NCBI GenBank assembly: GCA_003221455.1
Contig: QHRX01000007.1
Location: 18,580 to 82,579, forward strand
Length of the DNA: 64,000 bases
Direction of reading: 5' to 3'
DNA from: Candidatus Rokuibacteriota bacterium
Lineage (GTDB): Bacteria > Methylomirabilota > Methylomirabilia > Rokubacteriales > CSP1-6
Shown: in pieces, positions 13,732 through 41,221 of the stretch
How positions within the stretch are numbered: the first letter of the stretch is position 1
Layout: each line of letters starts with the position of its first letter
Notes under the pieces: generated by a model
What the model was told of the DNA's origin: nothing
The model's input: only the letters and a program-made list of their open reading frames with translations
Databases searched by the model: none
Translations under genes and position numbers: made by a program

Positions 13732-13762
13732 GAGGGGTCGACCTCCGCGAGTATAGCAGGGG

Positions 13763-16765: not shown

Positions 16766-16784
16766 TGCCGGCCTCGGACGCTGG

Positions 16785-19895: not shown

Positions 19896-19923
19896 CGCGG
19901 ATCGATCCCCCTGTCCGGTTTGT

Positions 19924-20277: not shown

Positions 20278-20352
20278 GCGAGCCGGCGCCGTCACGATAC
20301 CCCGAGAGTCAAATTCTCGCAAGCTGACGGGGGTGTGCTAGCATCCGAAACC

Positions 20353-23782: not shown

Positions 23783-23815
23783 GGCGCGGGCGAGCCAGGT
23801 CGGGACGGAGGATAG

Positions 23816-24259: not shown

Positions 24260-24554
24260 CGGGCTTGCGCATGCGATGGGGGCGGCCGGGAATCGCCGTT
24301 GCGCGTGGCGAGGGTGAGTCCGCTCGGGCTCAGCGCGGGCGACGGGGGACGGCGCTGACGAACTCCGACGCCTTCACAGAACCTGGCTGACGCCTCACGA
24401 GCGGCCGCGAGGTCGCCGGCCGGTACGGCCTCGCGTGCTCGGCGACCGGATGGGCGTGCCCGGCTCGAGAACGCCGCCGGCCGTCGTCTCGACGGGATTT
24501 GGCCTATCCTCATCAGGGAGAGGACCCAGCTATGGACACGGCGGAGGTGACCCG

Positions 24555-26683: not shown

Positions 26684-27837
26684 GAGTGATGTCCCCCGTT
26701 CGCCGACATCCGACCGTCAGACGCCACGGCAAACTTCCGGCCGCCCCAGTGGACGGTACGCCCCCAGAAACTCGCGACCCACACCACGAAACAGAGGACG
26801 TCTCGGAGCGGCACGAGCCAGGCGCGGCCGGGTTCGCGCAGGCCGAGGCTCGCTCGGACCGTGTAGTGGACGCCGAGCCGCAACACCAGCGCTCCGCCCG
26901 CGACCACCGCGCCCAGGATACTCAAGGATGATACCAGTAGATACGCGCCGGACAATAGAAGGGAATGGGTGACCAGAGACATCGCGTGACCGAGCGGCTG
27001 GGCCGTCCGGATCGTCCGTGCCCACCGGAGCTCGTGGGTGAAGAGTGTTCGGAAGTCCGGCTCCCAGACCGAGTTTTCGACGACGCAGGGGGCGAGGGCC
27101 ACCCGGAGGCCCCGCCGGTTCATGAAGACGCCCAGCATGTAGTCGTCGGCGAGGTAGGGGCCCAGGGCCGCAAACCCCCCGATCGCCTCGAGGGCCTCCC
27201 GCCGCACGGCCATGGTCGCGCCCAGGCAGAAGCGGTCCGGCTGGAGCGACCGCGCCACCAGGACCGAGGGCAGGAACCAGTCGTTGATGAACATCGCCCC
27301 GAGCACGGCCCACAAGCCGCCCGTGGCGCGTCCGGCGTAGAGACACGTGACCACTCCGACCGCGGGGTCCCGGAGGGGCCCGACGACGCTGCCGAGGTAG
27401 CTCTGGTCGACCCGCATGTCGCTGTCGGCGATGACCAGGAGGTCGTGTTTCGCCGCACCGTACATGTTGGCGAGGTTACTGACCTTGAGGTTGGTGCCGA
27501 TCACCCGGTCGTCCACGACGAGGGCAAGGTCGCGCCCAGGCAGGTCGCGCATGACCCGCTCCGCGACCGCGATCGCGGGGTCCTGCGGGTCGCGCACCCC
27601 GAAGACGACCTGAAACTCGGGGTAGTCTTGCTCGCAGAAGGAGCGGAGGTTCTCGTAGAGCCCCGGTTCCGCGCCCCTGAGCGGCTTGAGCACGGTGACG
27701 GGCGGCCCGGCGGCGGCCCGCGGCCGCTGCCGGGCGAACGCGCGGACCCGGGCGAGGGCGAAGACCGCGTACGCGAGGGAGAAGAGGCTAGCCGCGAGCA
27801 GAAGCGGGGAAAGGACCGAAAGCCGCGCCCCGAGCAC
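26677..27837 (-). CDS. hpnI: family 2 glycosyltransferase, HpnI-like
   Basis: 386 aa. The N-terminal TM helix is followed by a GT-A fold with a DxD motif (...IADSDMRVD...), and a C-terminal multi-TM region follows. It overlaps hpnJ by 7 nt. Confidence 0.7.
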   Translation of the reverse strand: MLGARLSVLSPLLLAASLFSLAYAVFALARVRAFARQRPRAAAGPPVTVLKPLRGAEPGLYENLRSFCEQDYPEFQVVFGVRDPQDPAIAVAERVMRDLPGRDLALVVDDRVIGTNLKVSNLANMYGAAKHDLLVIADSDMRVDQSYLGSVVGPLRDPAVGVVTCLYAGRATGGLWAVLGAMFINDWFLPSVLVARSLQPDRFCLGATMAVRREALEAIGGFAALGPYLADDYMLGVFMNRRGLRVALAPCVVENSVWEPDFRTLFTHELRWARTIRTAQPLGHAMSLVTHSLLLSGAYLLVSSLSILGAVVAGGALVLRLGVHYTVRASLGLREPGRAWLVPLRDVLCFVVWVASFWGRTVHWGGRKFAVASDGRMSANGGHHSC

Positions 27838-27842: not shown

Positions 27843-29120
27843 ATGCTAGCGTTACGGGGTATGCGTGTCCACGATATTCTTGCGCTCGCCGCCCCGGTTC
27901 TGCTCCTTTGGGTGGCCGGACCGGGCCCGGCCGCCGCCCACAGCTCGGCCCAGGTCGCCTCGACCCCGCCGGCGCCGGTGGCGGCGGCGGCGGCCGCGTC
28001 CGGCCTCCCCCCGGAGGCGGTGCTGGCGGCGGTGCGGCAGGCGACGGCGACGTACCTCGACATCGAGAAGGCGCGGGCCGACGGCTACGTCCAGATCAGC
28101 GGCATGGAAACCAACCATGGCGTCCACTTCTTGAACGTAAACGCGCAGATGCTCTCGGCGGCCGCCGGCCTGTTCTCGGCGGGCCGCGTGCTCGCGTCCC
28201 CCCCGATGCTGATCTACGTCCCGACGCGCGACGGACGCTGGCAGCTCGCCGCCGCCGAATACGCGCTGCCGTCGTCCAGGCTCGACACGAATCCCTTCCC
28301 GGGGGCGGCCTGGAGCGAGCACGAGGCGAGCTGCCACTACCGGGACTACCGGGAGCTCCCCGCCCCGGCGCCCGCGAGCTGCCCGAAGGTCCACCCCGTG
28401 AGCGGGGCTCCATTCGTGCTCTTCCATCCGAAGCTCGCCATCGTGCACGTGTGGGCGTGGTACCCGAACCCCCGCGGGGTCTACGCCGACCAGAATCCGT
28501 ACCTGGCGCCGTACGGCGGCGTCGGCACCCCCGAGCACCATCACGGCGCCATCCGCAGCGGCCCCGAGATCGCGTACTCCGAATTCAACCACCGCTCGTC
28601 CGGCGTCTTCCTGCTGGTGATCGCCGCCGTCGCGTTCTGGCAGGCGCGCGGCCCGCGCCGCCGCGCGTGGTCCGCCGCCAGCGCGGCGCTCTGGGTCGCC
28701 TTCGGCGTGTACCTCTTCGTCCGCAGCGATCCCGAGGCGTGGCCGTGGGGACCACTCGGGCTTCGGGAGAGCCTCGGCGATACCGAGGTCCTCCAGCACA
28801 AGCTCCTGACGCTGATCCCGATCGCGATCGGCCTGGCCGAGGCGCTCTACGGCGGCGGCGTGGCCAGGCGGCGGCCGAGCCTCTGGCTCGTGTCCGCGCT
28901 GGCGCTCGTGGGCGGCGTCGGCCTGTTCCTGCACTTCCATGAAGGCCGGCTGCATCTCGACTGGATTTACGCGCAGCACGCGGCCATGGGGCTGGCCAGC
29001 TTCGCCGCGGGCGTAGCGCTCCTGCTGTCGCGCCGCGCCGGACCGGGTTCGCGGCTGCACCTGCTCTGGCCCACGGTCCTCGTCTTGATGTCGGTCGTGC
29101 TCCTCTTCTACACCGAGTAG
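27843..29120 (+). CDS. hypothetical membrane protein (N-terminal periplasmic domain plus C-terminal multi-helix domain)
   Basis: The signal peptide reads [22 protein letters not shown]. It precedes a soluble domain of about 230 aa and 4-5 C-terminal hydrophobic helices. I recognise no family. Confidence 0.45.
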
Positions 29121-29177
29121 CGGCCGGCCGGCGGGGGCGGGCCGGCCCCGTGGTACACTGGCGCATTCAAAACCACC

Positions 29178-29184
29178 TAAGGAG
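29178..29184 (+). promoter_or_regulatory. Shine-Dalgarno sequence AAGGAGG for ino1
   Basis: CCTAAGGAGGCACCCC lies 7 nt upstream of the in-frame GTG at 29192. This argues against the listed upstream start at 29150. Confidence 0.5.
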
Positions 29185-29191
29185 GCACCCC

Positions 29192-30268
29192 GTGGCATCG
29201 GCCGTTCGCGTCGCGATCATCGGAGTCGGCAACTGTGCATCCGCCCTCGTTCAGGGCGTCCAGCACTACCGGGGCGCGCCGGACTCGGCGTTCATCCCCG
29301 GGCTCATGCACCCGCGGCTCGGCGACTACCACGTCGGTGACATCGAGTTCTCGGCGGCCTTCGACATCGATGCGCGCAAGGTCGGCCGGGATCTCTCGGA
29401 GGCGATCTTCACGCCGCCGAACAACACGGTGCGCTTCGCCACGGTGCCCCCCCTCGGCGTCGCCGTCCAGCGAGGGATGACGCACGACGGGCTCGGCCAC
29501 TACCTGTCCCAGCTGATCACACGCGCGCCGGGTTCGACGGCCGACATCGTGGGAATCCTCCGCGACACGGGCACGCAGGTCGTCGTCAACTTCCTTCCCG
29601 TCGGCAGCGAGATGGCGACCAAGTGGTACGTCGAGCAGATCCTCGACGCCGGTTGTGGGTTCGTCAACTGCATCCCGGTCTTCATCGCGCGGGAGGCCTA
29701 CTGGCGACGGCGCTTCGAGGAGCGCGGGCTGCCCGTCGTCGGCGACGACGTGAAGTCGCAGGTCGGCGCCACCATCGTGCACCGCGTGCTCACGCGCCTG
29801 TTCATGGAGCGGGGCGTGCGGCTCGAGCGGACGAGCCAGCTCAACGTCGGCGGCAACACCGACTTCTACAACATGCTCGAGCGCGAGCGTCTGGCGTCGA
29901 AGAAGACCTCGAAGACCGACGCTGTCCGCTCCCAGCTCACGCACGACCTCGAGGCCGACAACGTCCACATCGGCCCGAGCGACTTCGTCCCCTGGCTCGA
30001 GGACCGGAAGTGGGCCCACATTCGGCTCGAGGGGCGAGGGTTCGGAGACCAGCCGCTCACTATCGAGCTGAAGCTGGAAGTGTGGGACTCCCCCAACTCG
30101 GCGGGCGTGGTGATCGACGCGATCCGCTGCTGCCGGCTCGCGCTCGACCGCGGGCTGAAGGGCGCGCTCCTCGCGCCCTCCGCCTACTTGATGAAATCCC
30201 CGCCGGAGCAGTGGCCGGACGCCCTCGCGCGGGAGCGCCTCGAGCGGTTCATCAGCGGTGAGGATTAG
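29192..30268 (+). CDS. ino1: myo-inositol-1-phosphate synthase (inositol-3-phosphate synthase)
   Basis: [22 protein letters not shown]..., ...[17 protein letters not shown]..., ...[17 protein letters not shown].... This is the archaeal/actinobacterial short MIPS type. Confidence 0.85.
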
Positions 30269-30283
30269 GTCGGGCCCCGTCGG

Positions 30284-33200
30284 ATGAGCGTCGTCCTGCG
30301 AACCGGCCGCGCGCTCCGGCGACTGGTGCAGGTCGCCACCGCCCGGCCTGCCCTCACCGTCGTCGTCTCGCTGCTCCTCGCCGCGGCGGGCGTCGTCTAT
30401 TCGCTCCAGGAGCTCACGTTCATCACGTCCGGAAAGGACCTGCTCCCCCGCGGCCGCGCCTACGTGCAGCGCTACGCCGAGGACTCCCGGGAGTTCGCCG
30501 ACCCCGATCAGATCGTCGTCGCCGTCCAGGCGCCGCGCCTCGCGCTGGCCAAGGCGTACGCGAGCCAGGTGGCCCACGAGCTCCGGAAGTACCCGGACCG
30601 TTTCGAGCGCGTCGCGTACCGGACGGACCCCAAGCAGTTCGAGGGCCGGGCGCTGCTCTACGCGTCCACGGCGAAGCTCCGGGACATCCGCGACAAGATC
30701 CTCGACCACCAGAGCTTCCTGGAGTCGTTCGCCGCGCGCCCGACCCTCGATCAGCTCGTCGAGAACATCAGCACGCAGATCGGCACCGCCATTGTCACGA
30801 GCTTCTTCGATGTCGGCCTCGACCAGGGCAACAAGGACGTGGACCTCCGCGTCGTCAAGGACTTGCTCGCGCAGATCTCGGCCCGACTGGACTCCCCTTC
30901 GCCGTACCGGTCACCGTGGGGCTCGCTCTTCAGCCCGGACACGGGCGGCGAAGACGACGGCTACTTCCTCTCCGACGACAAACGACTCCTCTTCCTCCTG
31001 GCCGAGGGCGTCGGGAAACGGGGGAGCTTCACCGGGGATCGCGAGGCGATCGAGACGCTGCGCGGGACGATCGCCAGCCTCCGCGACCAGTTCCCCGACG
31101 TGACGGCCGGAGTCACGGGGGGGCCGGCGCTGTCGAACGACGAGATGCTGGCCGCCTTTCGGGACAGCCGGCGCGCCACGCTCCTGGCCTTTGCCCTCAC
31201 GCTCGGGCTCCTGTTGGTGGCGTTTCTCCGCGTGGGCCTGCCGATCCTGATGCTCGCCACGCTCGCGGTGAGCCTCTGCTGGTCGATGGGCATCATCACG
31301 GCGGTCGTCGGGCACCTGTCGATCTTCTCGGTGATGTTCATCTCGATCGTCGTCGGCATCGGGACTGACTACGGGATCTACTTCCTCTTCCGCCACGACG
31401 AGGAGCTGTTCCTCGGCCGCAGTCCGCGGGAGGCGCTCGAGTTGACGGCGGCGCGGAGTGGCCCCGGGATGCTGATCGGCGCGCTGACCGCGGCGGGCAC
31501 CTTCTACGTACTGATGGCGACCGAGTTCCGGGGGATCCAGGAGCTCGGCTTCATCGCCGGCACGTCGATCTTGCTCGCGTGGCTCTCGATGATGACGCTG
31601 TTTCCCGCGCTCATCATCCTGGTCGATCGTCGTCGCCCCGCGCGCGCGCCCGTCCCGATCCCGCGTGTGCTCGAGATCGAGCGGATCCGGGTGCCCTTCG
31701 TCGAGCGCATCATCCGGTACCCGAAGACGGTCGTGACGGCCGCGGCCCTCGCCACCGTCCTCTCGCTGGCGGCGCTGCCCGGCGTCTACTTCGACTACAA
31801 CCTCCTGAACCTGCAGGCCGTCGGCACCGAGTCGGTCGTCTGGGAGAAGCGCATCCTGGCGGCGGGGCGCTCGGGGTTCACCGCGCTCTCGACCGCCGCG
31901 TCCCTCGCCGAGCTCCGCCGGAAGGCGGCCGCGTTCGAGCGACTCCCCTCCGTCTCCGACGTGGATTCGGCGCTCCTGCTCATCCCGGAGGACCAGCCGG
32001 CGAAGCTCGGGGTCATCGGCGAGCTCGCGCCGATCGTCGCGCCCGTCCGCGTCGGCATCCCGGAGCCGGTCGACGTTGACCGGCTCGCCTCCGCGCTGTC
32101 GACGCTCAAGCATCGGTTCGACGTCGCCGCCGGCGAGGCCCCGCCCGGCCCCGATCGCGACGACGCCGCCGCCGTCCGGGACCGGGTCGCGGCGCTCAGC
32201 GCCAAGCTCCAGCGTACGGACCGGGACGTGTCGGAGCCGGCCTTGACCCTCCTGCAGGATCAGGTCTACCGTGACTTTGCCGGCTCTCTCCACCGCCTCC
32301 AGCGGAACCTGCACCCGCGCGAGATCGGGGTGAACGACGTTCCCAGCGAGCTCCGGCGCGAGTTCGTCTCGCCGAGCGGCCGCTTCCTGTTGCAGATCCA
32401 CCCCGGTGTCGACATCTGGGATCGGCACGGCGCCGAGCGCTTCGTCGCGGACCTCCGGAGCGTCGACCCCGAGGTGACGGGCACGCCCATCATCACCTTC
32501 GAGGCGATCAACTACATGGAGCGCGCCTACAAGGAGGGCACGGTCTACGCGTTCCTGGTCGTCACGCTCCTGAGCGCGCTGCTGATCCGCCGGTTCCGCG
32601 AGGCCGCCCTCGGGCTGGTCCCGCTGGTCCTCGGCACGCTCTGGACCGCGGGGCTCATGCAGCTCTTCCGGCTGCCCTTCAACTTCGGCAACGTCTTCGG
32701 GCTCCCCCTGATCATCGGCACCGGCGCCGAGTTCGGCCTCAACGTGGTGCTGCGCTACCTCGAGGGCCGTGAATACGGCGGCCCGCTCATTGCCCGGAGC
32801 ACGGTGATGGCGGTCCTCGTCAACGGCCTCACCACGATCGTCGGCTTCGGCAGCCTGATGGTCGCCGACCACCGCGGGATCTTCGGCCTCGGGCTCCTCC
32901 TCACGCTCGGCATGGCCGCCACGCTGACGGCAGCCCTCGTCGTGCTTCCGGTCCTGCTGCAGTGGAGCCAGCCTCCCCGGCCGTCGTCGGTGTCGCCTGG
33001 CGAGTCGATGGACCGCGCGGTCACCAGCGAGGGAACGGGGAGCGCCGCCCGGTTCCGATCCGTCGCGCCGCTGCCGAGGAGGCCTGTGGAACGCGCCGTG
33101 CTCTTTGACTTCGGCGGGACCCTGGACGCCGACGGGGTGACCTGGAAGGAGCGGTTTGCCCGCCTCTATCGAACCGAGGGCGTCCGGCTGGAGCCCGCGC

Positions 33201-33760
33201 GATTCGACCCGCTCTTTTACGCGGCCGACGACGCGCTCGTCGGCGCGACCCCGCCGACACTGTCGTTTGGCGAGACCGTCTCTCGGCTGGCCGCGGCCCT
33301 CGCCCAGGGACTCGGGCTGGGCGGCGACGACGCATTGGTCCGCCGGGTCGCGAGCCGCTTCCTCGAGGGCGCCCTCGAGGCGCTACGCGGCAACACGCCG
33401 CTGCTGTCGCGGCTTGGCCGCCGATACCGGCTGGGGATCGTCTCGAACTTCTACGGGAATCTCGAGACCGTCTGCGACGACGCTGGAATCCGTGAGCACT
33501 TCAGCGTCATCCTCGATTCGTGTCGCGTCGGATGCCGGAAGCCCGACCCCCGCATCTTCGACCGGGCCGTCGAGGAGCTGGGGATCACGCCGGCCGACGC
33601 GACGTTCGTCGGCGACTCGCCGACCCGGGACATGGCGGGGGCGCGCGCCGTGGGCATGCGTCACATCTGGCTCGCGGGCGAGGAGAGCGGGTCCCGGAAA
33701 CCCTGCTGCCCGGAGGACCGGGTCATCTCCTCCCTGGCCCAGCTGGAGGCGGTGCTGTGA
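30284..33760 (+). CDS. hpnN: HpnN-type RND/MMPL exporter fused in-frame to a C-terminal HAD-superfamily phosphatase domain
   Basis: 1158-aa continuous ORF. Residues 1 to about 880 are collinear with the second HpnN paralog at 41490, with about 70% identity by eye, 12 TM helices and two periplasmic loops. Residues 925-1158 carry HAD motifs: I FDFGGTLD, II IVSNFYGN, III CRKPDP, IV FVGDSPTRD. There is no stop codon between the two parts. Confidence 0.8.
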   Translation: MSVVLRTGRALRRLVQVATARPALTVVVSLLLAAAGVVYSLQELTFITSGKDLLPRGRAYVQRYAEDSREFADPDQIVVAVQAPRLALAKAYASQVAHELRKYPDRFERVAYRTDPKQFEGRALLYASTAKLRDIRDKILDHQSFLESFAARPTLDQLVENISTQIGTAIVTSFFDVGLDQGNKDVDLRVVKDLLAQISARLDSPSPYRSPWGSLFSPDTGGEDDGYFLSDDKRLLFLLAEGVGKRGSFTGDREAIETLRGTIASLRDQFPDVTAGVTGGPALSNDEMLAAFRDSRRATLLAFALTLGLLLVAFLRVGLPILMLATLAVSLCWSMGIITAVVGHLSIFSVMFISIVVGIGTDYGIYFLFRHDEELFLGRSPREALELTAARSGPGMLIGALTAAGTFYVLMATEFRGIQELGFIAGTSILLAWLSMMTLFPALIILVDRRRPARAPVPIPRVLEIERIRVPFVERIIRYPKTVVTAAALATVLSLAALPGVYFDYNLLNLQAVGTESVVWEKRILAAGRSGFTALSTAASLAELRRKAAAFERLPSVSDVDSALLLIPEDQPAKLGVIGELAPIVAPVRVGIPEPVDVDRLASALSTLKHRFDVAAGEAPPGPDRDDAAAVRDRVAALSAKLQRTDRDVSEPALTLLQDQVYRDFAGSLHRLQRNLHPREIGVNDVPSELRREFVSPSGRFLLQIHPGVDIWDRHGAERFVADLRSVDPEVTGTPIITFEAINYMERAYKEGTVYAFLVVTLLSALLIRRFREAALGLVPLVLGTLWTAGLMQLFRLPFNFGNVFGLPLIIGTGAEFGLNVVLRYLEGREYGGPLIARSTVMAVLVNGLTTIVGFGSLMVADHRGIFGLGLLLTLGMAATLTAALVVLPVLLQWSQPPRPSSVSPGESMDRAVTSEGTGSAARFRSVAPLPRRPVERAVLFDFGGTLDADGVTWKERFARLYRTEGVRLEPARFDPLFYAADDALVGATPPTLSFGETVSRLAAALAQGLGLGGDDALVRRVASRFLEGALEALRGNTPLLSRLGRRYRLGIVSNFYGNLETVCDDAGIREHFSVILDSCRVGCRKPDPRIFDRAVEELGITPADATFVGDSPTRDMAGARAVGMRHIWLAGEESGSRKPCCPEDRVISSLAQLEAVL

Positions 33761-34464
33761 TGCCCACGCCGGCTCTGACCGGCGCGATCATTGCCGCGGG
33801 GGATGGCAGCCGCCTGCGCCGTGCCGGGTGGACCGTGCCGAAGCCGCTGGTCCCCGTGGCCGGCGTGCCGCTCATCGAGGCGGTGATTCGAAACTTTCGT
33901 GCCGCACGCGTCACCTCGCTCCGCATCATCGTGAACGAACGGGCGCGCGACTGCGTGGAGTGGGTGCGGGCGCGGTTTCCCGAGGCCGACGTCGAGTTCA
34001 TCGTGAAGACGACCGCCTCGTCCTTCGAGAGCTTTCTCGAGGTGGCCCGTCACGGTACGGGCCGTATGCTGGTGTCGACCGTGGACGCGTGGTGCCGCGA
34101 GGCTGACTTCGTGCGCTTCGTCGAGGCCGCGGCCCAGCGGCCTCCCGACGCCACCGTGCTGGCCGTGACGCCGTTGGTCGCCGACGAGAGTCCGCTCTGG
34201 GTACGGCTCGACGCGATCGGCCGGGTCACCGAGCTCGGAGGGGGCTCGGGAGAGCTGGTGACAGCGGGAATCTATCTCGTGCCGGAGCGCGTCAGGAGGA
34301 TGGACGCCCCGCCCGGGATCGGACGGCTGCGGGAGTTCCTGACGTGGCTCTCCAAAAGCGGAGAGCCGCTGTACGGCGAGGTAATCCAGACCGTCGTGGA
34401 CGTCGATCGGGGCGACGACGTCGCGCTCGCCGAGGCGCTGGCCCTCGGCGCACGGTCGTCATGA
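33760..34464 (+). CDS. nucleotidyltransferase (NTP_transferase family, sugar/alcohol-phosphate cytidylyl- or uridylyltransferase-like)
   Basis: MPTPALTGAIIAAGDGSRLRRAGWTVPKPLVPVAGVPLIEAV is the canonical N-terminal GxGxRL...PKPL motif. Its ATG overlaps the upstream TGA. Confidence 0.75.
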   Translation: MPTPALTGAIIAAGDGSRLRRAGWTVPKPLVPVAGVPLIEAVIRNFRAARVTSLRIIVNERARDCVEWVRARFPEADVEFIVKTTASSFESFLEVARHGTGRMLVSTVDAWCREADFVRFVEAAAQRPPDATVLAVTPLVADESPLWVRLDAIGRVTELGGGSGELVTAGIYLVPERVRRMDAPPGIGRLREFLTWLSKSGEPLYGEVIQTVVDVDRGDDVALAEALALGARSS

Positions 34465-34483
34465 TCCGCCCGGGAGGGACCGC

Positions 34484-35323
34484 GTGAGCACCGCCACTTG
34501 CTGGGGTATCTTTCGGGAGCGGGCGCATTCCCCGGGCCGGGAGAACGACGACGCCGAGATCCTGCGCCTGACCGGCAAGCATCTCGAGGCCGAGGGGTTT
34601 CAGGTGGTCCTCAAGGGCCCCGAGGAGTTGAGTGGTCCCTTCGACGGCCGGCCGCGCTGTGCCTTCCTGATGTGCGAGCGGCTCGAGGCGCTCAGGCAGC
34701 TCCGGGCGTGGGAGGCGGGCGGCGCGCCCCTCGTGAATCGGCCGGAAGCGGTCCTGAACACGTATCGGGTGCGGATGGTCACCCGGCTCGCGGCGGCCGG
34801 CCTGCCGTTCGTCGAGAGCCAGATCGTGCCAACCACGGGCGGCCGGAGCCACGGTGCCCTGCCCGCGTGGGTCAAGCGCGCGGACGTCCACAACACCCAG
34901 GAGGGCGACGTGGTGTTCGCGTCGACCGGGGACGCCGTCGAAGCGGCGCTTCACGGACTCGCCGCGCGCGGCATCGCTCGTGCCGTGATCCAGCCGCACC
35001 TCGAGGGGGACCTCGTCAAGTTCTACGGGGTCGGTGTCGGGGCGACCGGCCCGGGCGAGACACCGTGGTTCCGCTGGTTCTACCCGAAGGAGCAGCGGCC
35101 GGCCCGCTACCCGATCGACGCCGCGCACCTGGCGAGTCTGGCGGCCGGCGCAGCGGCGGCCCTCGGCCTGGAAGTGTACGGCGGCGACGCCCTCGTCAGC
35201 GCGCCCGGCACGATCGTGCTGCTCGACCTCAACGCGTGGCCGAGCTTCGCGCTCTACCGGGACGAGGCCGCGGCCCGGATCGCGTCCCACCTGGCACGCC
35301 GGTTTTCGGAGAGTCTCCGGTGA
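34484..35323 (+). CDS. ATP-grasp fold protein (RimK/inositol-polyphosphate-kinase-like)
   Basis: 279 aa. ...GDVVFASTGD... and ...AVIQPHLEGDLVKFYGVG... are consistent with an ATP-grasp B/C-domain. The function is unknown. Confidence 0.5.
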   Translation: MSTATCWGIFRERAHSPGRENDDAEILRLTGKHLEAEGFQVVLKGPEELSGPFDGRPRCAFLMCERLEALRQLRAWEAGGAPLVNRPEAVLNTYRVRMVTRLAAAGLPFVESQIVPTTGGRSHGALPAWVKRADVHNTQEGDVVFASTGDAVEAALHGLAARGIARAVIQPHLEGDLVKFYGVGVGATGPGETPWFRWFYPKEQRPARYPIDAAHLASLAAGAAAALGLEVYGGDALVSAPGTIVLLDLNAWPSFALYRDEAAARIASHLARRFSESLR

Positions 35324-36648
35324 CGACGCCCCGCCTGGTGGGTCCGCGGTCGCGCCAGATCGTCGAGCGGGAAGCACGACACATCGCCGCCGGGCTTCAG
35401 TCGTACGCCCTCTACTCCGGGCTCGCGATGGCCCGCGGCACTGGATGCACCCTCATCGACGAGGACGGCAACGAATACGTCGACTTCATGGCGGGCATCG
35501 GCGTCGGCAGCGTCGGACACTGCCACCCGCGCTACGTCGAGGCGCTGAAGCGGCAGGTCGAGCAACTCACCTTCGGCAGCTTCGCGACGGAGACGCGCGC
35601 GCGCTTTCTCGAGCTGCTGGCCAAGACCACGCCGGCCGGGCTGGCGCGCATTCAGATGTTTTCCGGAGGCGCGGAGGCCGTCGAGGCGGCCCTGCGCTTG
35701 GCCAAGGCCGCCACCGGCAAGCGCGAGGTCATCGGATTCTGGGGAGGGTTCCACGGCAAGACCGGAGGAGTGCTCGGGCTCCTGGGAAGCGATTTCAAGC
35801 ACCACCAGGGGCCCTTCACACCGGGCCACCACCTCTCTCCCTACGCCGACTGCTACCGCTGCCCGCTCCGCTTGCGCTATCCGGAGTGCGGGATCGCCTG
35901 TGCGGAGTATCTGCGCGACGTCATCCGGTACCAGACGGGTGGCGAGATCGGCGCGATCATCGTCGAGCCCATCCAGGGCACGGCGGGCAACGTGATCCCG
36001 CCACCCGGGTTCCTCAAGGCGGTGCAGGCCGTCGCCCGAGACCACGGCGCCCTCCTCATCGTGGACGAGATGCTCACGGGCTTCGGTCGGACGGGATCCA
36101 TGTGGGGCTGCGACGGCGACGGCGTGGTCCCCGACGTCATGACGGTCGGCAAGGGCGTGGGCGGCGGCTTCCCCCTGAGCGCCGTCGTCTCCACCGACGA
36201 GCTCACGGCGCACAAGCCGTGGTCGAACCCCAGCGCAAGCTCGTCGAGCTACGGGGGCAACCCGCTGGCGGCGGCCGCCGGGCTGGTCGCACTCGAGATC
36301 ATCCTGGAGGAGGATCTCGTGACGAACGCCGAGCGCGTGGGCAAAGTCATGCTCGAGCGGCTCGAAGCGCTGAAGGAGAAGTACCGGTGTATCGGGGAGG
36401 TGCGGGGAAGAGGCCTCATGCTCGGAATCGAGCTCGTCCGGGATCGCGCGACCAAGGAGCCGCTCCCGGCGGCGGTCACGCGAGCGCTCTATCAGGAGTG
36501 CCTGCGGCGCGGCCTGGTCGCGATGGCATACTCGCACGTGGTCCGGATCAACCCGCCCCTGGTCATTACCGAAGACATCGCGCTGACCGGTCTCGCCATC
36601 CTCGACGAGGCCCTGGACGCGGTCGTCCGCGCGCACGGGCTCCAGTAA
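35320..36648 (+). CDS. class III (acetylornithine/ornithine/GABA-type) PLP aminotransferase, HpnO-like
   Basis: A GTG start overlaps the upstream stop (GTGA). ...GCTLIDEDGNEYVDFMAGIGVGSVGH..., ...LIVDEMLTGFGRTGSMWG... and ...MTVGKGVGGGFPLSAV... (PLP Lys) are present. Confidence 0.8.
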   Translation: MTTPRLVGPRSRQIVEREARHIAAGLQSYALYSGLAMARGTGCTLIDEDGNEYVDFMAGIGVGSVGHCHPRYVEALKRQVEQLTFGSFATETRARFLELLAKTTPAGLARIQMFSGGAEAVEAALRLAKAATGKREVIGFWGGFHGKTGGVLGLLGSDFKHHQGPFTPGHHLSPYADCYRCPLRLRYPECGIACAEYLRDVIRYQTGGEIGAIIVEPIQGTAGNVIPPPGFLKAVQAVARDHGALLIVDEMLTGFGRTGSMWGCDGDGVVPDVMTVGKGVGGGFPLSAVVSTDELTAHKPWSNPSASSSSYGGNPLAAAAGLVALEIILEEDLVTNAERVGKVMLERLEALKEKYRCIGEVRGRGLMLGIELVRDRATKEPLPAAVTRALYQECLRRGLVAMAYSHVVRINPPLVITEDIALTGLAILDEALDAVVRAHGLQ

Positions 36649-36723
36649 CCCCTGCGCGGGGCGGCCAGTGGACGCGCGTGCCGACCCACGGCCGGCGCGT
36701 CCGACGTCGCCTCCGCCTGGCCC

Positions 36724-37404
36724 TCAGAAGCGCACCGAGATGCCGGCGAGCGGGTAGCGCGTGTCGAGATCGAACCGTAGCCTCGTCGAGCCCGGCGGAG
36801 TCCGGAACGTGAATTCAGGACTGAAATGGGTGTACCGGTACTCCGCAAAGAGCGCGACGTGGGGATAAAATTGCCACACGAGCCCGGCGGCGGCCTGCAC
36901 GCCCAGCGGGAAGTCGGTCTCGTACTGGTCCGTGGGCATCAGGTTCGTCGTGTCCTTGGCCTCCGCCAGCGCGACCGCCGGTCCGACGGTCAGATACGGT
37001 TGAAGCCGGCCCCGGGGAATCGCGTCGGTCGGCAGCAACGGCCATCGGAGCATCAGATCGAACGCCATGGGCGTCGTATAGAGGTCGAGCCGCTTGAGCG
37101 ACGACGGGACCGTATCCGGCCGAAAGTGCGAGACATCCAGAGACACACCGACGTACCTCGCGAAATCGAACCAATACCCGGCCCGGACGCCATAGCCCGA
37201 CGACCGGTTGAACCGTATGTGCTTGAGGGTCGTCTCCCCCGTCGGAGAGTCGTCCTTGACGTCACTCTTGTCCGTGAACGCGCCTCCGAGATAGAGATCG
37301 GCGAACCACTCGGCCGACACGGGCGGCACCGCGAGGGCGAGCCAGAGCACGACTCCGCCGATGAGCGCCGTCGCCGTGATCCGGGATTGCCGAGATGGAC
37401 CCAT
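36724..37404 (-). CDS. outer-membrane beta-barrel protein (OmpW/OmpA-beta-barrel-like)
   Basis: 226 aa with a signal peptide. It shows alternating hydrophobic beta-strands, aromatic girdle residues and a C-terminal ...GISVRF. Confidence 0.7.
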   Translation of the reverse strand: MGPSRQSRITATALIGGVVLWLALAVPPVSAEWFADLYLGGAFTDKSDVKDDSPTGETTLKHIRFNRSSGYGVRAGYWFDFARYVGVSLDVSHFRPDTVPSSLKRLDLYTTPMAFDLMLRWPLLPTDAIPRGRLQPYLTVGPAVALAEAKDTTNLMPTDQYETDFPLGVQAAAGLVWQFYPHVALFAEYRYTHFSPEFTFRTPPGSTRLRFDLDTRYPLAGISVRF

Positions 37405-37675
37405 TCCCGCCCCCTCTCCTGGCGTTCACTGAGCAGGCACCTCTCCCGGTCTGCGCGTTCGCCCGTCCTCACGTCGTGACCAGAGTCGTTCCCGAGACGC
37501 GTGGCCCGCGACGGCCGAGTCTCTGCGTCAGCCACTCCAGCCGCCGCTGCGGCGGCACCCGATCCCGGGGGGGGGTGCCACGTGACTGCGGGATGAGCGA
37601 GAAGGTCCGCCGACGGCCGTCCCGGGCCCAGTGGCCCTCAGCGAGTATGCGCCCCGACGGTGACAGTATTTTCGG

Positions 37676-37704
37676 TTTAAAACGCGAACGCGGCAAGCCA
37701 TAAT
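37676..37704 (+). promoter_or_regulatory. putative sigma70-like promoter (TTTAAA-N17-CATAAT) upstream of the Gfo/Idh/MocA gene
   Basis: An AT-rich island lies in an otherwise roughly 70% GC intergenic region. The spacing is 17 nt and the element sits about 180 nt upstream of the ATG at 37887. Confidence 0.3.
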
Positions 37705-37886
37705 TCCCCAAATTCCCGCGGACGACGCGGGGGGTGGAGCTCCTCGGCTGGTGCGGAGGGCATCATCATTGGGCGACCTGACGTCAGTCCCCTTCTGCCT
37801 CTCGGCCGACGACGCCGCGCGGGCCGGCCCCGCCAGTCGCGCCGAGGGGTTGGCCACGGTCGTTCGCGCGCGCAGGCTCCGTTAGC

Positions 37887-38936
37887 ATGCTGCGCGGCGC
37901 GCTCCTGGGCCTCGGCAATGTCGCCCTGCACGGACACCTGCCCGGCTGGATGCGTCGCCCGGACGTCGAGATCGTCGCCGCGGCCGACGCTCGGCCCGGC
38001 CGCCGGGCCGAGTGCCACGCGCGCCTGCCGGGCGCCCGGTGGTACGACTCAACCGACGAACTGCTGACCGACGCCTCCGTCGACTTCGTCGACATCTGCA
38101 CGCCACCGTCGAGCCACGCGCCGCTGATCCGGGGCGCGCTCGGGCGAGGCTTGCACGTTCTGTGCGAAAAACCCCTGGTCTGTTCGGTCGACGAGGTGCG
38201 CTCGCTCGCGCAGCTCGCGGCCGCGAGCGGTCGGGTTCTTCAGAGCGTCGACAACTGGCAACACGCGCCCATCATCCGACAGGTCCGGGAGCTCCTCGGG
38301 CGGGGCGAGATCGGCGAGGTCTCGCGGGTCGTCTGGCACACCCTGCGGACCCGCCCCGCTCCGGCCGGCGACACGCCGGGCCAGAACTGGCGCCTCGAGC
38401 CGGCGGTCGCGTGCGGCGGCGTCCTGGCCGACCACGGCTGGCACGCCTTCTACATCGTCCAGCGATGGATCGGGAAGCGGCCGACCTCGATCGCCGCCCG
38501 GCTCGAGACGCGCCGGCACACGGACTGGCCTGTCGAAGATACCGCGACCGTCGCGCTGACGTTTCCCGACGCCGCCGCCGAAGTCTTCCTCACCTGGGCG
38601 GCTGACGTGAGACGGAACTGGGCCGAGCTGACCGGCACCGCGGGCCGGATCGAGCTCGACGGCGACACCCTGACGGTGACGCGGCACGGCGGCGAGCGAC
38701 GGTGGTCGGTACCACCCTCCCTGTCCGACGGCTCTTGGCATCCGGACTGGTTCGACCCGGTGGTCGACCAGTTCCTCGCCGAGGTGACGGGGTCCGCGCC
38801 GCACGGCTCGAACCTCGCGGAGGCCTCGCTCTGCGTCGCGCTGCACGCGCTCGCGCGCGAGTCGAGCGGACGAGGGGGGCAGGCGCTGGCGCCGCCCCTC
38901 GCCGCGCCGACGGCGTCGATGGAGCCTTCGGTCTGA
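37887..38936 (+). CDS. Gfo/Idh/MocA-family NAD(P)-dependent oxidoreductase (inositol/sugar dehydrogenase-like)
   Basis: The N-terminal Rossmann motif is LRGALLGLGNVALHGHLP, the pattern ...CEKPL... is present, and the C-terminal alpha/beta domain is typical of the family. Confidence 0.8.
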   Translation: MLRGALLGLGNVALHGHLPGWMRRPDVEIVAAADARPGRRAECHARLPGARWYDSTDELLTDASVDFVDICTPPSSHAPLIRGALGRGLHVLCEKPLVCSVDEVRSLAQLAAASGRVLQSVDNWQHAPIIRQVRELLGRGEIGEVSRVVWHTLRTRPAPAGDTPGQNWRLEPAVACGGVLADHGWHAFYIVQRWIGKRPTSIAARLETRRHTDWPVEDTATVALTFPDAAAEVFLTWAADVRRNWAELTGTAGRIELDGDTLTVTRHGGERRWSVPPSLSDGSWHPDWFDPVVDQFLAEVTGSAPHGSNLAEASLCVALHALARESSGRGGQALAPPLAAPTASMEPSV

Positions 38937-38941
38937 CGCCG

Positions 38942-40123
38942 GTGGGGGCTCCCGACACCGGGGCGGCGGCGAGCATCCTGGTGGTGCTCCCCCCGGCGAC
39001 GGGCGGGGCCGACGCGGTCTCGCCCGGCACCGTCGTCGCCGGCCTTCCCCTGCTCCGCCGCGTCGTGCTGGCCGGCGGGCGCGCGGGGTTCGGGCGCGTC
39101 TGGGCGTTCGGCTCCGCGCCGAGCGGCGACGGGCGCCCAGACGCCCGGCCGGCCGCGCCGGCCGCCGACGACCCGGGGCCCGCGCGCGCGCCCGGGAGGG
39201 TGGTCGTGCTCGCGGCCAACGTCATCCCGACGCCGCAGTGGTTCCGCACGCTCCTGGAGCTGCCCCTCGCGAAGGACACCCTCTACGTCGACGACGCCAA
39301 GGTGGCGGTGATCGAGAGCGGCGAGCCGTCCGCGATCCTGGCCGCGGCGACCCGCTGCCGGACCCTCGCCGAGTTGGTCACGGCCCTCGGCGGCGCCGTC
39401 GCGGTGGTGGACCGGGCTCTCGAGCCACGGGGACGGTTCCCGCTCGCCACGCGCGCCGACCTCCCCCGCGCGGAGACGTGGCTGCTCGGGAGCCTCGTCA
39501 AGCGCGGCGAAGGGGTCACCTCGCGCTACCTCGAGCGCCGAATCTCGCTCGCCATCACGCGACGCCTGGTCGCCACGCCCGTGACGCCCAACGTCATGAC
39601 CTTCGTGAGCGTCTCGATCGGCCTCGCCGGCGCCCCGTTCTTCCTCGCCTCCTCGGCCGCCTACCAGCTCCCGGGGGCCCTGCTCTTCCTGGCGCATTCG
39701 ATCCTGGACGGCTGCGACGGCGAGCTCGCCCGGCTCAAGTTTCTGGAGTCGCGCCGCGGCGCGATCCTCGACTACTGGGGCGACAACCTCGTCCACGCGG
39801 CCGTCTTCTCGTGCATGGCGATCGGCTGGAGCCTCGCCGTCCACGCGCTGTGGCCGCTTGTCCTCGGCGCCGTCCTCGTCGCGAGCTCGCTCGCCGCCGC
39901 GGCCGTCCTCTTTCGGCAAACCCTCGAGGATGACGTACCCGACGCCGACGCCCCCGCGGTCGCCCGGATCACCGAGCAGTTTTCCCACCGCGACTTCATC
40001 TACCTCGTGGTCGCGCTGGCGGCGGCGGGGAAGGCCGCCTGGTTCGTGGCCGTCGCCTCCGTGGGCACGCCGATTTTTCTGCTCCTGGCACTCGCAAGCC
40101 GGCTCGCGGCCCGGACGCGTTGA
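38942..40123 (+). CDS. bifunctional IPCT/DIPPS-like protein: N-terminal cytoplasmic (nucleotidyltransferase-like) domain fused to a CDP-alcohol phosphatidyltransferase membrane domain
   Basis: The membrane domain carries the CDP-OH phosphotransferase signature DGCDGELARLKFLESRRGAILDYWGDNLVHAA (DGxxAR...Gx3Dx3D). The juxtamembrane segment GVTSRYLERRISLAITRRLVATPVTPNVMT resembles the IPCT/DIPPS linker. The start is uncertain, between 38942 and 38981. Confidence 0.65.
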   Translation: MGAPDTGAAASILVVLPPATGGADAVSPGTVVAGLPLLRRVVLAGGRAGFGRVWAFGSAPSGDGRPDARPAAPAADDPGPARAPGRVVVLAANVIPTPQWFRTLLELPLAKDTLYVDDAKVAVIESGEPSAILAAATRCRTLAELVTALGGAVAVVDRALEPRGRFPLATRADLPRAETWLLGSLVKRGEGVTSRYLERRISLAITRRLVATPVTPNVMTFVSVSIGLAGAPFFLASSAAYQLPGALLFLAHSILDGCDGELARLKFLESRRGAILDYWGDNLVHAAVFSCMAIGWSLAVHALWPLVLGAVLVASSLAAAAVLFRQTLEDDVPDADAPAVARITEQFSHRDFIYLVVALAAAGKAAWFVAVASVGTPIFLLLALASRLAARTR

Positions 40124-40243
40124 GGCGCGACGCCGTGGTCGCCCGGACGGGTCCGCCGCGCCGAGCCCGCGCCGACCGACGCTCGCCTGCCGGCGTCGCG
40201 GCGCACCGGCCACGCCGGCCGAGTCCGTAGGGAGCACCGGCGC

Positions 40244-41221
40244 GTGCGCTACGTCCACTCCCTCCTCTTCCTCCTCGGCGCGGCGCTCCTGGTCGTCCTC
40301 GTCGCCCGCAACGACCCGACCGCGATCGCCGCCGCGATCGCCCGACTCTCGTGGCGGATTCTCGTCGTGCTCTGTTTCCCGATCACGCTGGCGACGCTGT
40401 TCGACACGCTCGGCTGGCACTTCGCGTTCCGGCGCGACCGCGTCGCCTTCCGCACGTTGGTGTCCGCCCGGCTCGCGGGCGAGGCCTTCAACGTGACGAC
40501 GGCGTCCGTCGGGGGCGAGGCGGTGAAGGCGTGGTTGCTCCGCCCGTCGGTGCCGCTCGGCGAGAGCCTGCCCTCGCTGATCGTCTCGAAGACGACCATC
40601 ACGATCGCCCAGGGTCTCTTCCTCCTCTTCGGCGTCGCCCTCGCGTGGCGGACCGCCCGCCCGGACTCGCCGGTCCTCTACGGGATGGAGGTCCTGCTGG
40701 TCGTCGAGGTCGTCGCGGTGGCCGGTTTCGTCGCCACCCAAGTCTTCGGGCTGATCGGGCGCGCGGGGCGGCTGCTCGGCCGGCTCGGCACGCACGTCTT
40801 CGGCGCCCGGGACACCCTGGTCCAGGTCGACGACGTGCTCGTGCGCTTCTATCGCGAAGAGCCGCGGCGCCTCGCCCTCTCGATCGCCTGCCATTTCGTC
40901 GGCTGGCTGGTCGGTTCCGTCGAGGCCTACCTGATCCTGCGCTTCCTCGGCGTGGGCGTGTCGCTGACCACCGCGACCGTGATCGAGGCCTTCGGCACCG
41001 CGGTTCGGTTCGCGACCTTCGTGATCCCGGCAAGCCTCGGCGCCGCCGAGGGCGGCTACCTCGTGACGTTCCTCGGGTTCGGCCTTGGGTCGACCGCCGC
41101 CGTCTCGTTCAGCCTGGTCAGGCGAGTCCGCGAGGGGACGTGGGCGGCGATCGGACTCATCATCTTCGCGGTGATGCGCCGCCGGACCGATTCGACGGCG
41201 GCCCTCACCGCCGCGGGCTGA
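40244..41221 (+). CDS. lysylphosphatidylglycerol-synthase-TM/UPF0104 flippase-like membrane protein (HpnL-like)
   Basis: 325 aa with about 8 TM helices. ...WRILVVLCFPITLATLFDTLGWHFAF... is typical of the family. Confidence 0.6.
   Translation: MRYVHSLLFLLGAALLVVLVARNDPTAIAAAIARLSWRILVVLCFPITLATLFDTLGWHFAFRRDRVAFRTLVSARLAGEAFNVTTASVGGEAVKAWLLRPSVPLGESLPSLIVSKTTITIAQGLFLLFGVALAWRTARPDSPVLYGMEVLLVVEVVAVAGFVATQVFGLIGRAGRLLGRLGTHVFGARDTLVQVDDVLVRFYREEPRRLALSIACHFVGWLVGSVEAYLILRFLGVGVSLTTATVIEAFGTAVRFATFVIPASLGAAEGGYLVTFLGFGLGSTAAVSFSLVRRVREGTWAAIGLIIFAVMRRRTDSTAALTAAG

Follow-up and report, generated by a model that had tools for sequence, protein, structure and literature searches.

Gene content of the locus

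A window of 64,000 nucleotides from the genome of a Candidatus Rokuibacteriota bacterium (GenBank assembly GCA_003221455.1, contig QHRX01000007.1, positions 18,580 to 82,579 of the forward strand) was analysed, and all positions below without a locus number refer to this window. A set of genes at 29150-41221, very probably for a phosphate head group derived from inositol and probably amino-modified, sits within a genuine hopanoid locus of an uncultured soil bacterium from Rokubacteria. The set is also conserved in other phyla without cultured members. The block is explained here as part of a cassette that is an ancient, broadly conserved and uncharacterised operon of eight to nine genes, joined to the hopanoid locus in this lineage. 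Genes were called from the third-position GC content (GC3) and the reading frame, the window having a G+C content of approximately 70%, and families were assigned with Pfam and NCBIfam scans, in which scores were compared with the curated cut-offs. All genes named at 29150-41221 in a preliminary description of this DNA were recovered by these three approaches. The genes of the block and its immediate borders are:

27843-29120, + strand: membrane protein of 425 amino acids, between hpnI and the gene for myo-inositol phosphate synthase (MIPS)
29150-30268, + strand: MIPS of the short bacterial type (PF01658, E 1e-35)
30284-33049, + strand: HpnN-like RND (HAE3/MMPL) transporter, copy 1 (TIGR03480, 581 bits, cut-off 752; PF03176, PF12349)
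33086-33760, + strand: HAD-superfamily hydrolase (PF00702, PF13419, PF13242)
33757-34464, + strand: stand-alone nucleoside triphosphate (NTP) transferase (PF12804, E 3e-12; PF00483; AAGDGSRL motif)
34484-35323, + strand: ATP-grasp protein of 279 amino acids (X279), assigned by predicted fold
35320-36648, + strand: class-III pyridoxal phosphate (PLP) enzyme/aminotransferase, similar to GabT and acetylornithine aminotransferase (PF00202, E 1e-100)
36724-37404, - strand: outer-membrane beta-barrel protein (OMP; PF13505, E 2e-11; weak PagL match PF09411, E 3e-4)
37887-38936, + strand: Gfo/Idh/MocA NAD(P) dehydrogenase (PF01408, PF22725, PF02894)
38942-40123, + strand: cytidine diphosphate (CDP)-alcohol phosphotransferase, AF2299-type (PF01066)
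40244-41221, + strand: HpnL-like, flippase-like membrane protein (PF03706, LPG_synthase_TM, E 4e-25)
41490-44249, + strand: HpnN-like RND transporter, copy 2 (TIGR03480, 544 bits, cut-off 752)

Conservation of the cassette

A scan of one genome per species with the transferase showed that at least 532 genomes encode a relative. The best 80 loci, together with seven from look-ups of exact proteins, gave 87 related loci from genomes and metagenomes (L001-L087), onto which the window proteins were mapped by tblastn. The best 80 loci belonged to Rokuibacteriota, Methylomirabilis oxygeniifera, Nitrospira/Nitrospirales, Acidobacteriota/Thermoanaerobaculia, Rhodospirillales and Opitutales. Enrichment cultures of Candidatus Methylomirabilis are among the carriers of the cassette (L046, L048 and L057). 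Sufficient upstream sequence to judge gene order was available for 69 of the 87 loci. The five-gene core order NTP-transferase – ATP-grasp – PLP enzyme – dehydrogenase – transferase was present in 57 of these 69 informative loci, which were drawn from Rokubacteriales, Methylomirabilales, Nitrospirota, Acidobacteriota/Thermoanaerobaculia and Rhodospirillales. Four further loci contained the same five core genes with the transferase shifted to the front. Given this number of colinear loci, the arrangement occurs far more often than expected by chance, and the conservation of the neighbourhood in relatives, on which the earlier reading of the locus depended, was confirmed.

The HAD was present as a stand-alone gene in 64 of the 87 loci and the PF03706 protein in 60. 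The ancestral order is proposed to be PF03706 – HAD – NTP-transferase – ATP-grasp – class-III PLP – Gfo/Idh/MocA – AF2299-type transferase – MIPS, and the full string of eight genes, from PF03706 through MIPS, was present in the Nitrospirales locus L049. In that Nitrospirales operon, a gene for a radical SAM/SPASM protein (L049 12575-13777) directly followed MIPS. Named homologues of the transferase came from Candidatus Rokubacteria/Methylomirabilota; when cultured hosts were sought among these, only metagenome-assembled genomes were found. The most conserved cassette protein was the class-III PLP enzyme (68-88% identity across phyla). Its fixed position in the cassette, also in phyla without nearby hpn genes, argues against it being HpnO.

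Label-free clustering of the open reading frames (ORFs) over all loci returned a family of approximately 455 amino acids immediately after the transferase in 18 non-Rokubacteria loci. This family is the long form of MIPS (PF07994, E 1e-96, with PF01658). The short form, 81-96% identical to the MIPS of the window, adjoined the cassette in 15 Rokubacteria loci, and MIPS accompanied the cassette in 33 of the 87 loci, covering four phyla. Judged from these sequences, the assignment of the cassette as a putative inositol-phosphate/CDP-alcohol module is supported.

In five loci from Nitrospirae, Opitutales and Tistlia (L045, L050, L061, L070 and L077), the transferase gene lay directly after genes for a ketopantoate-reductase-like protein (ApbA/PanE) and an NAD-dependent epimerase/dehydratase. 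Genes for the NTP-transferase, ATP-grasp protein, PLP enzyme and Gfo dehydrogenase were absent from these five loci.

Enzymes of the cassette

Active-site motifs were intact in the NTP-transferase, the Gfo dehydrogenase, the PLP enzyme, the ATP-grasp protein and the transferase. Of the Pfam families anticipated in the preliminary description, PF01658 was found in the MIPS and PF01066 in the transferase, but PF07994 was not detected in the window MIPS by the Pfam scan. Against TIGR03450 the window MIPS scored 515 bits, below the cut-off of 638. Its real start is probably at 29192, giving 358 amino acids as in L085. The dehydrogenase keeps the EKP motif and the D-x3-H catalytic motif; its top NCBIfam match was inositol 2-dehydrogenase IolG (71 bits, cut-off 355). 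The closest relatives of the class-III PLP enzyme in the PDB were transaminases of the GabT type and amino-acid racemases. A phosphonate (aminoethylphosphonate) route, prompted by the likeness of the PLP enzyme to PbfA, was dropped because no locus contained a phosphoenolpyruvate mutase.

HpnN, HpnL and HpnM were the best-match families for their respective genes, all with scores below the curated cut-offs. The PF03706/HpnL-like protein scored 165 bits against TIGR03476 (cut-off 196), and the two HpnN copies scored 370 and 328 bits against NF052374 (cut-off 1100). The copies are 72% identical to each other, and the orthologue of copy 2 is the sole copy in L003. The block had been described as bracketed by two HpnN exporters, which is true in a loose sense: two RND copies are present, but MIPS lies outside them.

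The CDP-alcohol phosphotransferase carries the signature of its superfamily, D-x2-D-G-x2-A-R...G-x3-D-x3-D, as D265-G-C-D-G-E-L-A-R...G282-A-I-L-D286-Y-W-G-D290, which was invariant in 24 homologues. It had been taken for a bifunctional protein with an IPCT/DIPPS-like part. The N-terminal domain of approximately 180 residues, which includes the stretch VVAGLPLLRRVVLAGGRAGF, lacks the GxGxR motif of nucleotidyltransferases (G-x-G-x-R-L/M in a competent cytidylyltransferase domain), and its fold is weakly cytidylyltransferase-like (Foldseek E about 0.04-0.3). The IPCT/DIPPS family NF041135 was the best NCBIfam match, with 77 bits against a cut-off of 580 and over the DIPPS half only (residues 178-379). 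Without the motif and with a score so far under the cut-off, a bifunctional IPCT/DIPPS identity was rejected in favour of an AF2299-like protein. Scores against PIPS (39 bits, cut-off 170) and AIPS (54 bits, cut-off 180) were also low.

A structural model of the transferase (pLDDT 81) contained a juxtamembrane helix and six transmembrane (TM) helices as assigned by DSSP. Foldseek aligned it with AF2299 of Archaeoglobus fulgidus (PDB 4o6n) over approximately 390 columns (E 8e-14, target-normalised TM-score 0.74). In an hmmsearch of the PDB with the family profile, AF2299 ranked first (E 4e-30), followed by IPCT/DIPPS (E 3e-20). According to the model, the window transferase is an AF2299-type two-domain protein, with a predicted degenerate cytidylyltransferase-like cytosolic domain and a 6-TM catalytic domain. 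AF2299 (PDB 4o6m/4o6n) was the best match over both domains, with which it shares the degenerate cytosolic domain, the juxtamembrane helix and six TM helices, and the region HSI(L/I)DGCDGE(L/I)ARLKF(L/M)ES is near-identical. In contrast, the overall identity is approximately 23%, the fourth catalytic Asp is followed by Arg in AF2299 and by Asn in the window, and AF2299 is archaeal, with no operon of the present type reported. In AF2299, the domain that resembles a cytidylyltransferase is non-catalytic; the protein was crystallised with CDP-glycerol and its physiological product was not established (PMC4634129).

A placement of the transferase among the PgsA or PssA phospholipid clades had been named as the outcome that would speak against an inositol function. 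The closest characterised relatives were instead AF2299, IPCT/DIPPS, AIPS and PIPS, all of which work on inositol phosphate or CDP-polyols (PMC4634129). Because the N-terminal domain of the transferase is degenerate, the stand-alone NTP-transferase, a putative CTP:alcohol-phosphate cytidylyltransferase, must provide the cytidylyltransferase activity. Going by this stand-alone enzyme and the 6-TM architecture, the transferase might use a small soluble CDP-polyol donor and a soluble acceptor.

Second transferase modules were seen beside the cassette in several loci. In L031 (13314-15795), a separate gene encoded a genuine fusion of an NTP-transferase and a CDP-alcohol transferase (IPCT-DIPPS-like, AAGRGGRL) and was followed by a PF03706 gene. 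L026 and L027 contained a module with the order short transferase – PF03706 – MIPS (about 6300-8900). Locus L062 (9099-14308) contained the order IPCT-like NTP-transferase – transferase – MIPS – short transferase – PF03706, beside an RND gene.

The 279-amino-acid protein had no sequence match in Pfam or the PDB. An AlphaFold model was built on 22 homologues (pLDDT 85). Fold comparison gave 21.9 for RimK, 21.8 for LysX/ArgX and about 19-20 for D-Ala-D-Ala ligases, and among the inositol-phosphate kinases 19.1 for PPIP5K and 18.6 for ITPK1. The (D/E)-x-N Mg-binding motif of ATP-grasp enzymes is present as an invariant D-x-N metal site. The fold model and the invariant site bear out the call of an ATP-grasp protein made in the preliminary description; the predicted fold is that of a kinase or a ligase and does not discriminate between the two.

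A HMMER search with this protein in a library of 1.84 billion proteins returned 978 cluster representatives at E <= 1e-3, 129 of them at E <= 1e-30. Eight of the matches, all metagenomic proteins, were fusions: six of the NTP-transferase–ATP-grasp type, and one each of the types HAD–NTP-transferase–ATP-grasp and ATP-grasp–CDP-alcohol transferase (P0360, P0363, P0422, P0431, P0457, P0507, P0394 and P0365). The fused parts were orthologous to the window proteins (56% and 43% identity). These natural fusions indicate that the HAD, the NTP-transferase, the ATP-grasp protein and the transferase share one pathway. A minimal variant of the cassette in Acidobacteriota consisted of PF03706/HpnL – HAD – ATP-grasp – transferase, with no aminotransferase. 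Since the ATP-grasp protein is kept where the aminotransferase is absent, it cannot simply be a ligase for the amine formed by the PLP enzyme, a role further weakened by the fusion to the NTP-transferase.

The exporter with a C-terminal HAD noted earlier is indeed a single ORF of 1158 amino acids in the window (30284-33760), with the HpnN-like RND part at residues 11-893 and the HAD part at residues 937-1158. However, DNA alignment showed that the window lacks 58 bp (33020-33090; L085 8490-8600), including the RND stop codon and part of the intergenic region, and the in-frame fusion is due to the loss of this stop codon. The metagenomic contigs L085-L087 have the same gene order, including the OMP insertion and both RND copies, and an ATP-grasp protein that is 92% identical. 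On these contigs approximately 100 bp lie between an RND gene of 920 aa and a HAD gene of 224 aa, and the two genes are also unfused in L017, L068 and L003. A functional fusion was rejected as a conserved feature, given the separate genes in relatives and a deletion unique to the window. Either strain variation or an error in the assembly could account for the deletion. The HAD start signals, GGAGG and GTG, are kept inside the fused ORF, and the HAD may still be translated separately.

Motif I of the HAD read LFDFGGTLD in all 43 aligned members (the window protein and 42 homologues). It has Gly at Asp+2 and deviates from the D-x-D-x-(T/V) pattern, while motifs II-IV (VSN, K-P, GDSxxRD) are conserved. 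For a phosphatase this motif I is unusual, which suggests that the substrate or the chemistry is non-standard.

Link to hopanoid and membrane transport genes

The hopanoid setting of the window was confirmed, with IspH, HpnD, HpnH, squalene-hopene cyclase (SHC), HpnJ and HpnI all scoring above their NCBIfam cut-offs. The genes on the left flank of the block are:

12733-13773: IspH (NCBIfam score above cut-off)
15911-16816: HpnD (NCBIfam score above cut-off)
18873-20234, - strand: HpnH (NCBIfam 521, cut-off 225)
20197-22251, + strand: SHC (NCBIfam 781, cut-off 431)
about 23030-24259, + strand: MlaF/MlaD-like genes
24435-25193, + strand: HpnM-like (NCBIfam 89, below cut-off 160)
25271-26683, - strand: HpnJ (NCBIfam 810, cut-off 578)
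26677-27837, - strand: HpnI (NCBIfam 453, cut-off 310)

To the right of the second HpnN-like gene, the family scans of the window identified mreB and then unrelated housekeeping genes. No HpnK of the YdjC type was seen in the scanned part of the hopanoid locus, despite the presence of hpnI and hpnJ.

The inositol genes had been described as wired into the hpn cluster, which did not hold beyond a minority of loci. In most Rokubacteria the cassette adjoins smpB and the RNase PH gene, as in L001 and L002, where it lies between the two, and hopanoid genes are absent within 10 kb. The idea that it is an intrinsic part of hpn clusters was rejected, most loci being located elsewhere in the genome. 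Nine loci had shc, hpnH, hpnI or hpnJ within 10 kb of the cassette. The hopanoid-linked loci fall into four gene orders, namely those of the window with L085-L087 and L003, of L012, of L024 and L025, and of L021 and L031. In the latter two, which are from Methylomirabilales, shc is co-directional and directly upstream of the string PF03706/HpnL – HAD – cassette – MIPS, and the gaps are short. The association with hopanoid genes is recurrent, not universal, and a hopanoid anchor for the product is speculative.

HpnN- and/or HpnM-like genes adjoined the cassette in 22 loci from several phyla. Pairs of RND and MlaC-like genes, 27-37% identical to the window copies, were found beside it in Methylomirabilis, Nitrospirales and Rhodospirillaceae. 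These recurrent transport neighbours argue for a product that is moved as a lipid and leave open whether this lipid is a hopanoid. A lipid is also favoured by the company that PF03706 proteins keep in other bacteria, where they occur together with enzymes for phospholipid head groups. In Escherichia coli, the PF03706 protein YbhN belongs to the ybhP-clsB-ybhN operon, alongside ClsB. A PF03706 gene is also located near both types of Bacteroidetes inositol-lipid cluster, including a BT_1521 homologue (PMC9246714). A microsynteny survey of hopanoid loci from 2025 makes no mention of inositol, and HpnL is listed there as a protein of unknown function (PMC12324291).

Proposed pathway

A kinase, a nucleotidyltransferase and a CDP-alcohol phosphotransferase encoded side by side follow the logic of the Kennedy pathway. 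We therefore hypothesize that the cassette encodes a Kennedy-type route (kinase, cytidylyltransferase, phosphotransferase) that yields a head group of inositol phosphate or inosamine phosphate, a proposal that we consider quite possible, if just short of probable. Whatever the route, the product is rather more probably a membrane lipid than a solute. MIPS would form inositol-3-phosphate, as expected from its family membership. The HAD could perhaps free inositol, or else dephosphorylate the final product. The Gfo-type dehydrogenase and the PLP enzyme may convert a ring hydroxyl to an inosose and then to an inosamine. The ATP-grasp protein, considering its fold and the fusions, would phosphorylate the cyclitol, with a ligase as the alternative, and the NTP-transferase would form the CDP-activated alcohol. 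The transferase would then join this CDP-alcohol via a phosphodiester to a second alcohol on the cytoplasmic side of the membrane; the intact catalytic signature supports the chemistry, and the substrates are putative. The PF03706 protein, the HpnN-like RND pumps and the MlaC-like HpnM, all recurrent neighbours, may carry the product outward. The implied product would be a membrane lipid with a zwitterionic (amino)inositol-phosphate head group, anchored by diacylglycerol or a hopanoid polyol. Since the minimal variant persists without an aminotransferase, the Kennedy logic is independent of the amine.

An amidinotransferase gene (L021 3092-4198) was observed between shc and the PF03706-HAD-cassette string of one Methylomirabilales genome. 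A phmmer search of the PDB matched its product to SxtG (4e-139), AGAT (4e-99) and the inosamine-phosphate amidinotransferase StrB1 (4e-75). This single case hints at a primary-amine intermediate and a possible guanidino derivative of the amine product.

Several points weigh against the Kennedy-type route to a lipid. The minimal Acidobacteriota variant has no NTP-transferase nearby, and canonical phosphatases have an Asp+2 general acid that is missing from the HAD. Class-III PLP enzymes usually handle terminal aldehydes and amines or racemise, and the amination of a ring ketone would be unusual. In the transferase family, the fourth catalytic Asp is followed by an invariant Asn291 (GDN), where the aligned AF2299, DIPPS and PIPS chains have D-R. 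The Arg at this position (R94 of Mycobacterium tuberculosis PgsA1) is described as conserved in enzymes that use inositol phosphate (PMC6506517). With Asn instead of Arg, the acceptor site would thus be unlike those of all solved relatives. The IPCT-DIPPS-like fusion of L031 has Gly at the same position, so the Arg criterion is not decisive. Six-TM CDP-alcohol phosphotransferases such as AF2299 and DIPPS take soluble acceptors and process no lipids (PMC4634129). A donor made by a soluble NTP-transferase would itself be soluble, and strict homology would then predict a soluble phosphodiester. The pathway is built from sequence and model inference, and its products and activities are putative.

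These last points would fit a soluble polyol-phosphodiester of the di-myo-inositol phosphate (DIP) or glycerophosphoinositol (GPI) type as the product. The NTP-transferase would make CDP-inositol or another CDP-polyol, the AF2299-like enzyme would join it to inositol-3-phosphate, the HAD would take off the leftover phosphate, and the dehydrogenase, PLP enzyme and ATP-grasp protein would decorate one cyclitol, giving for example an amino-DIP. Such a solute would reside in the cytoplasm or the periplasm. The combination of MIPS, cytidylyltransferase, DIPPS/AF2299-like transferase and phosphatase is the logic of archaeal DIP and GPI synthesis, and some transferase homologues carry the JGI annotation IPCT/DIPPS. 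AF2299, the closest protein in both structure and sequence, binds CDP-glycerol and processes no lipids, and a 6-TM architecture is typical for enzymes with soluble acceptors (PMC4634129). We nevertheless regard a solute as somewhat unlikely. DIP-type solutes are known from thermophiles and hyperthermophiles, whereas the present hosts are mesophiles of soil and groundwater. A solute would leave the membrane partners that recur across phyla (PF03706, CopD-like, and HpnN-like RND with its MlaC-like partner) without a role. The Asn in place of the Arg conserved in inositol-phosphate users and the non-canonical motif I of the HAD count against this explanation as well. If the product is a lipid, the polyol side chain of bacteriohopanetetrol could be the acceptor or the CDP-activated partner, giving a phospho-inositol or phospho-inosamine hopanoid with HpnL as flippase and HpnN as exporter. 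The nine loci with four gene orders near hopanoid genes, the co-directional shc directly upstream in L021 and L031, and the two recently duplicated HpnN-like genes that flank the window cassette are consistent with this narrower form of the lipid proposal, and what HpnL does is an open question (PMC12324291). On the other hand, hopanoid genes are absent within 10 kb in about 65 of the 87 loci, Thermoanaerobaculia and other groups carry the cassette without hopanoid genes nearby, and HpnN, HpnL and HpnM are under their equivalog cut-offs. A soluble NTP-transferase and a 6-TM transferase would fit a bulky lipid substrate poorly. We know of no phosphorylated hopanoid, and none was found in literature searches. 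A hopanoid product of this kind is unlikely, and the fully specified version, a bacteriohopanepolyol–phosphodiester–inositol/inosamine hopanoid with the HpnL-type PF03706 protein as flippase and a dedicated HpnN paralogue as exporter, slightly more so.

The minimal HpnL – HAD – ATP-grasp – transferase variant, which has no NTP-transferase, would agree with a transferase that resembles PIP synthase. It would use CDP-diacylglycerol and a phosphorylated (amino)cyclitol, and the HAD would then remove the phosphate, as in the pairs PgsA/Pgp or PIPS/PIP phosphatase. The ATP-grasp protein would attach an amino acid to the head group through an ester or amide bond, as the MprF synthase does but independently of tRNA, and the PF03706 protein would flip the resulting cationic lipid. 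In fold, the ATP-grasp protein best matches amino-acid ligases, among them the ester-forming D-Ala-D-lactate ligases, and amino-acid racemases are among the nearest solved relatives of the PLP enzyme. To our knowledge, the sole characterised role of a PF03706 protein is the flipping of aminoacyl-phosphatidylglycerol in MprF, which also counts in favour of aminoacylation. A fusion of transferase and HAD is reported in Prevotella veroralis (PMC9246714). However, this route would give no role to the NTP-transferase, which is near-universal in the cassette and recurs in fusions with the ATP-grasp protein, and the transferase is nearer to AF2299/DIPPS than to PIP synthases, as its low PIPS score indicates. 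We consider it the most improbable of the explanations discussed here.

Comparison with known systems

Literature searches on the cassette, on inositol in hopanoid loci and on CDP-inositol lipids found no description of the operon. The organisation had been called undescribed, and this stands for the operon as such; a partial precedent exists in the cluster of the Bacteroides vulgatus type (Heaver et al. 2022, PMC9246714). This "alternative inositol lipid cluster" of B. vulgatus and Prevotella contains MIPS, an NTP-transferase, a CDP-alcohol transferase and a HAD, with unconfirmed function; a Kennedy-like route via CDP-inositol has been proposed for it, and such species make inositol lipids (PMC9246714). 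All four enzyme families and the nearby PF03706 protein are shared with the window and many related loci, a likeness at the level of gene families. In contrast, the present cassette always adds the ATP-grasp protein, the class-III PLP enzyme and the Gfo/Idh/MocA dehydrogenase. It further differs in the AF2299-like N-terminal domain, the fusions, the HpnN/HpnM-like and hopanoid neighbours, and the hosts (Methylomirabilota, Nitrospirota and Acidobacteriota).

The IPCT/DIPPS system of hyperthermophiles (PDB 4mnd) follows the same logic of MIPS, cytidylyltransferase, CDP-alcohol phosphotransferase and phosphatase. It differs from the window, where the N-terminal domain of the transferase is catalytically degenerate and extra tailoring enzymes, membrane partners and mesophilic hosts are found. 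With the Kennedy pathway of eukaryotes and bacteria (alcohol kinase, CTP:phospho-alcohol cytidylyltransferase, CDP-alcohol phosphotransferase) the cassette would share the three-step logic, and the fusions mirror known bifunctional kinase/nucleotidyltransferase enzymes. In contrast, the predicted kinase is of the ATP-grasp rather than the choline-kinase fold, and the alcohol would be a cyclitol. The window transferase has six TM helices, compared with 9-10 in enzymes with lipid acceptors (PMC4634129).

The step order proposed here is also that of the aminocyclitol routes of actinomycetes, with which the cassette shares the Gfo/Idh/MocA dehydrogenase and, in L021, the amidinotransferase family. 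The routes to streptomycin and hygromycin A use MIPS, a phosphatase, a Gfo-type inositol dehydrogenase, an aminotransferase, a kinase and an amidinotransferase. They have aminotransferases of the DegT type and lead to secreted antibiotics, with no CDP-alcohol phosphotransferase or membrane partners. Overall, the closest described system is the B. vulgatus-type cluster, the closest biochemical paradigm archaeal DIP/GPI synthesis, and the closest structure AF2299.

Rokubacteria, Methylomirabilis, Nitrospira and Acidobacteriota are abundant, mostly uncultured bacteria that matter for soil and for the nitrogen and methane cycles, and hardly anything is known of their envelope chemistry. What the operon predicts is a phosphate head group of inositol or an aminocyclitol, or else a solute related to it, that is so far undescribed, which would widen bacterial inositol chemistry past Actinobacteria, Bacteroidetes and thermophiles. 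It also suggests testable roles for PF03706/HpnL proteins, AF2299-type transferases, a new ATP-grasp subfamily and the second HpnN paralogue. Were a hopanoid anchor true, HpnL would gain a function, and soil Methylomirabilota would have a new class of phosphorus- and nitrogen-bearing hopanoid biomarkers.

Further genes in and around the block

The 425-amino-acid membrane protein between hpnI and MIPS had no Pfam or NCBIfam match. From hydropathy, it consists of a signal or TM segment, a periplasmic domain of approximately 230 amino acids and, at the C-terminal end, TM helices. In most Rokubacteria a longer homologue, a CopD-domain protein of approximately 500 amino acids, is encoded downstream of the transferase, and the window protein is a shortened form. 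Homologues with 28-35% identity (tblastn) were present in 42 of the 87 loci, usually approximately 500 amino acids long and located after the transferase; the homologue in L001 (11198-12772) has PF05425. The CopD-domain protein in Rokubacteria takes the place that is held by MIPS in other phyla.

Next to ispH, where the hopanoid locus borders on other genes, 10123-12732 (- strand) encodes a PgaB-like polysaccharide deacetylase (PF01522) and a sensor-like protein of the HAMP type. A Zn-dependent alcohol dehydrogenase (13763-14926, - strand) is encoded between ispH and hpnD. Its top NCBIfam match was scyllo-inosose 3-dehydrogenase IolM (150 bits, cut-off 450), and it may be a second cyclitol-related enzyme or merely a generic threonine-dehydrogenase-like protein.

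The OMP gene within the block (36724-37404) is an antisense insertion restricted to this lineage, being present in L085-L087 and absent from L003 and all other loci. It divides the cassette into two transcription units, with a promoter-like site at 37676-37704, upstream of the dehydrogenase. PagL, to which the OMP showed a weak match, is a lipid A deacylase. A clearer PagL-like gene (L031 1225-1908; PF09411, E 2e-16) was located between hpnM and shc.

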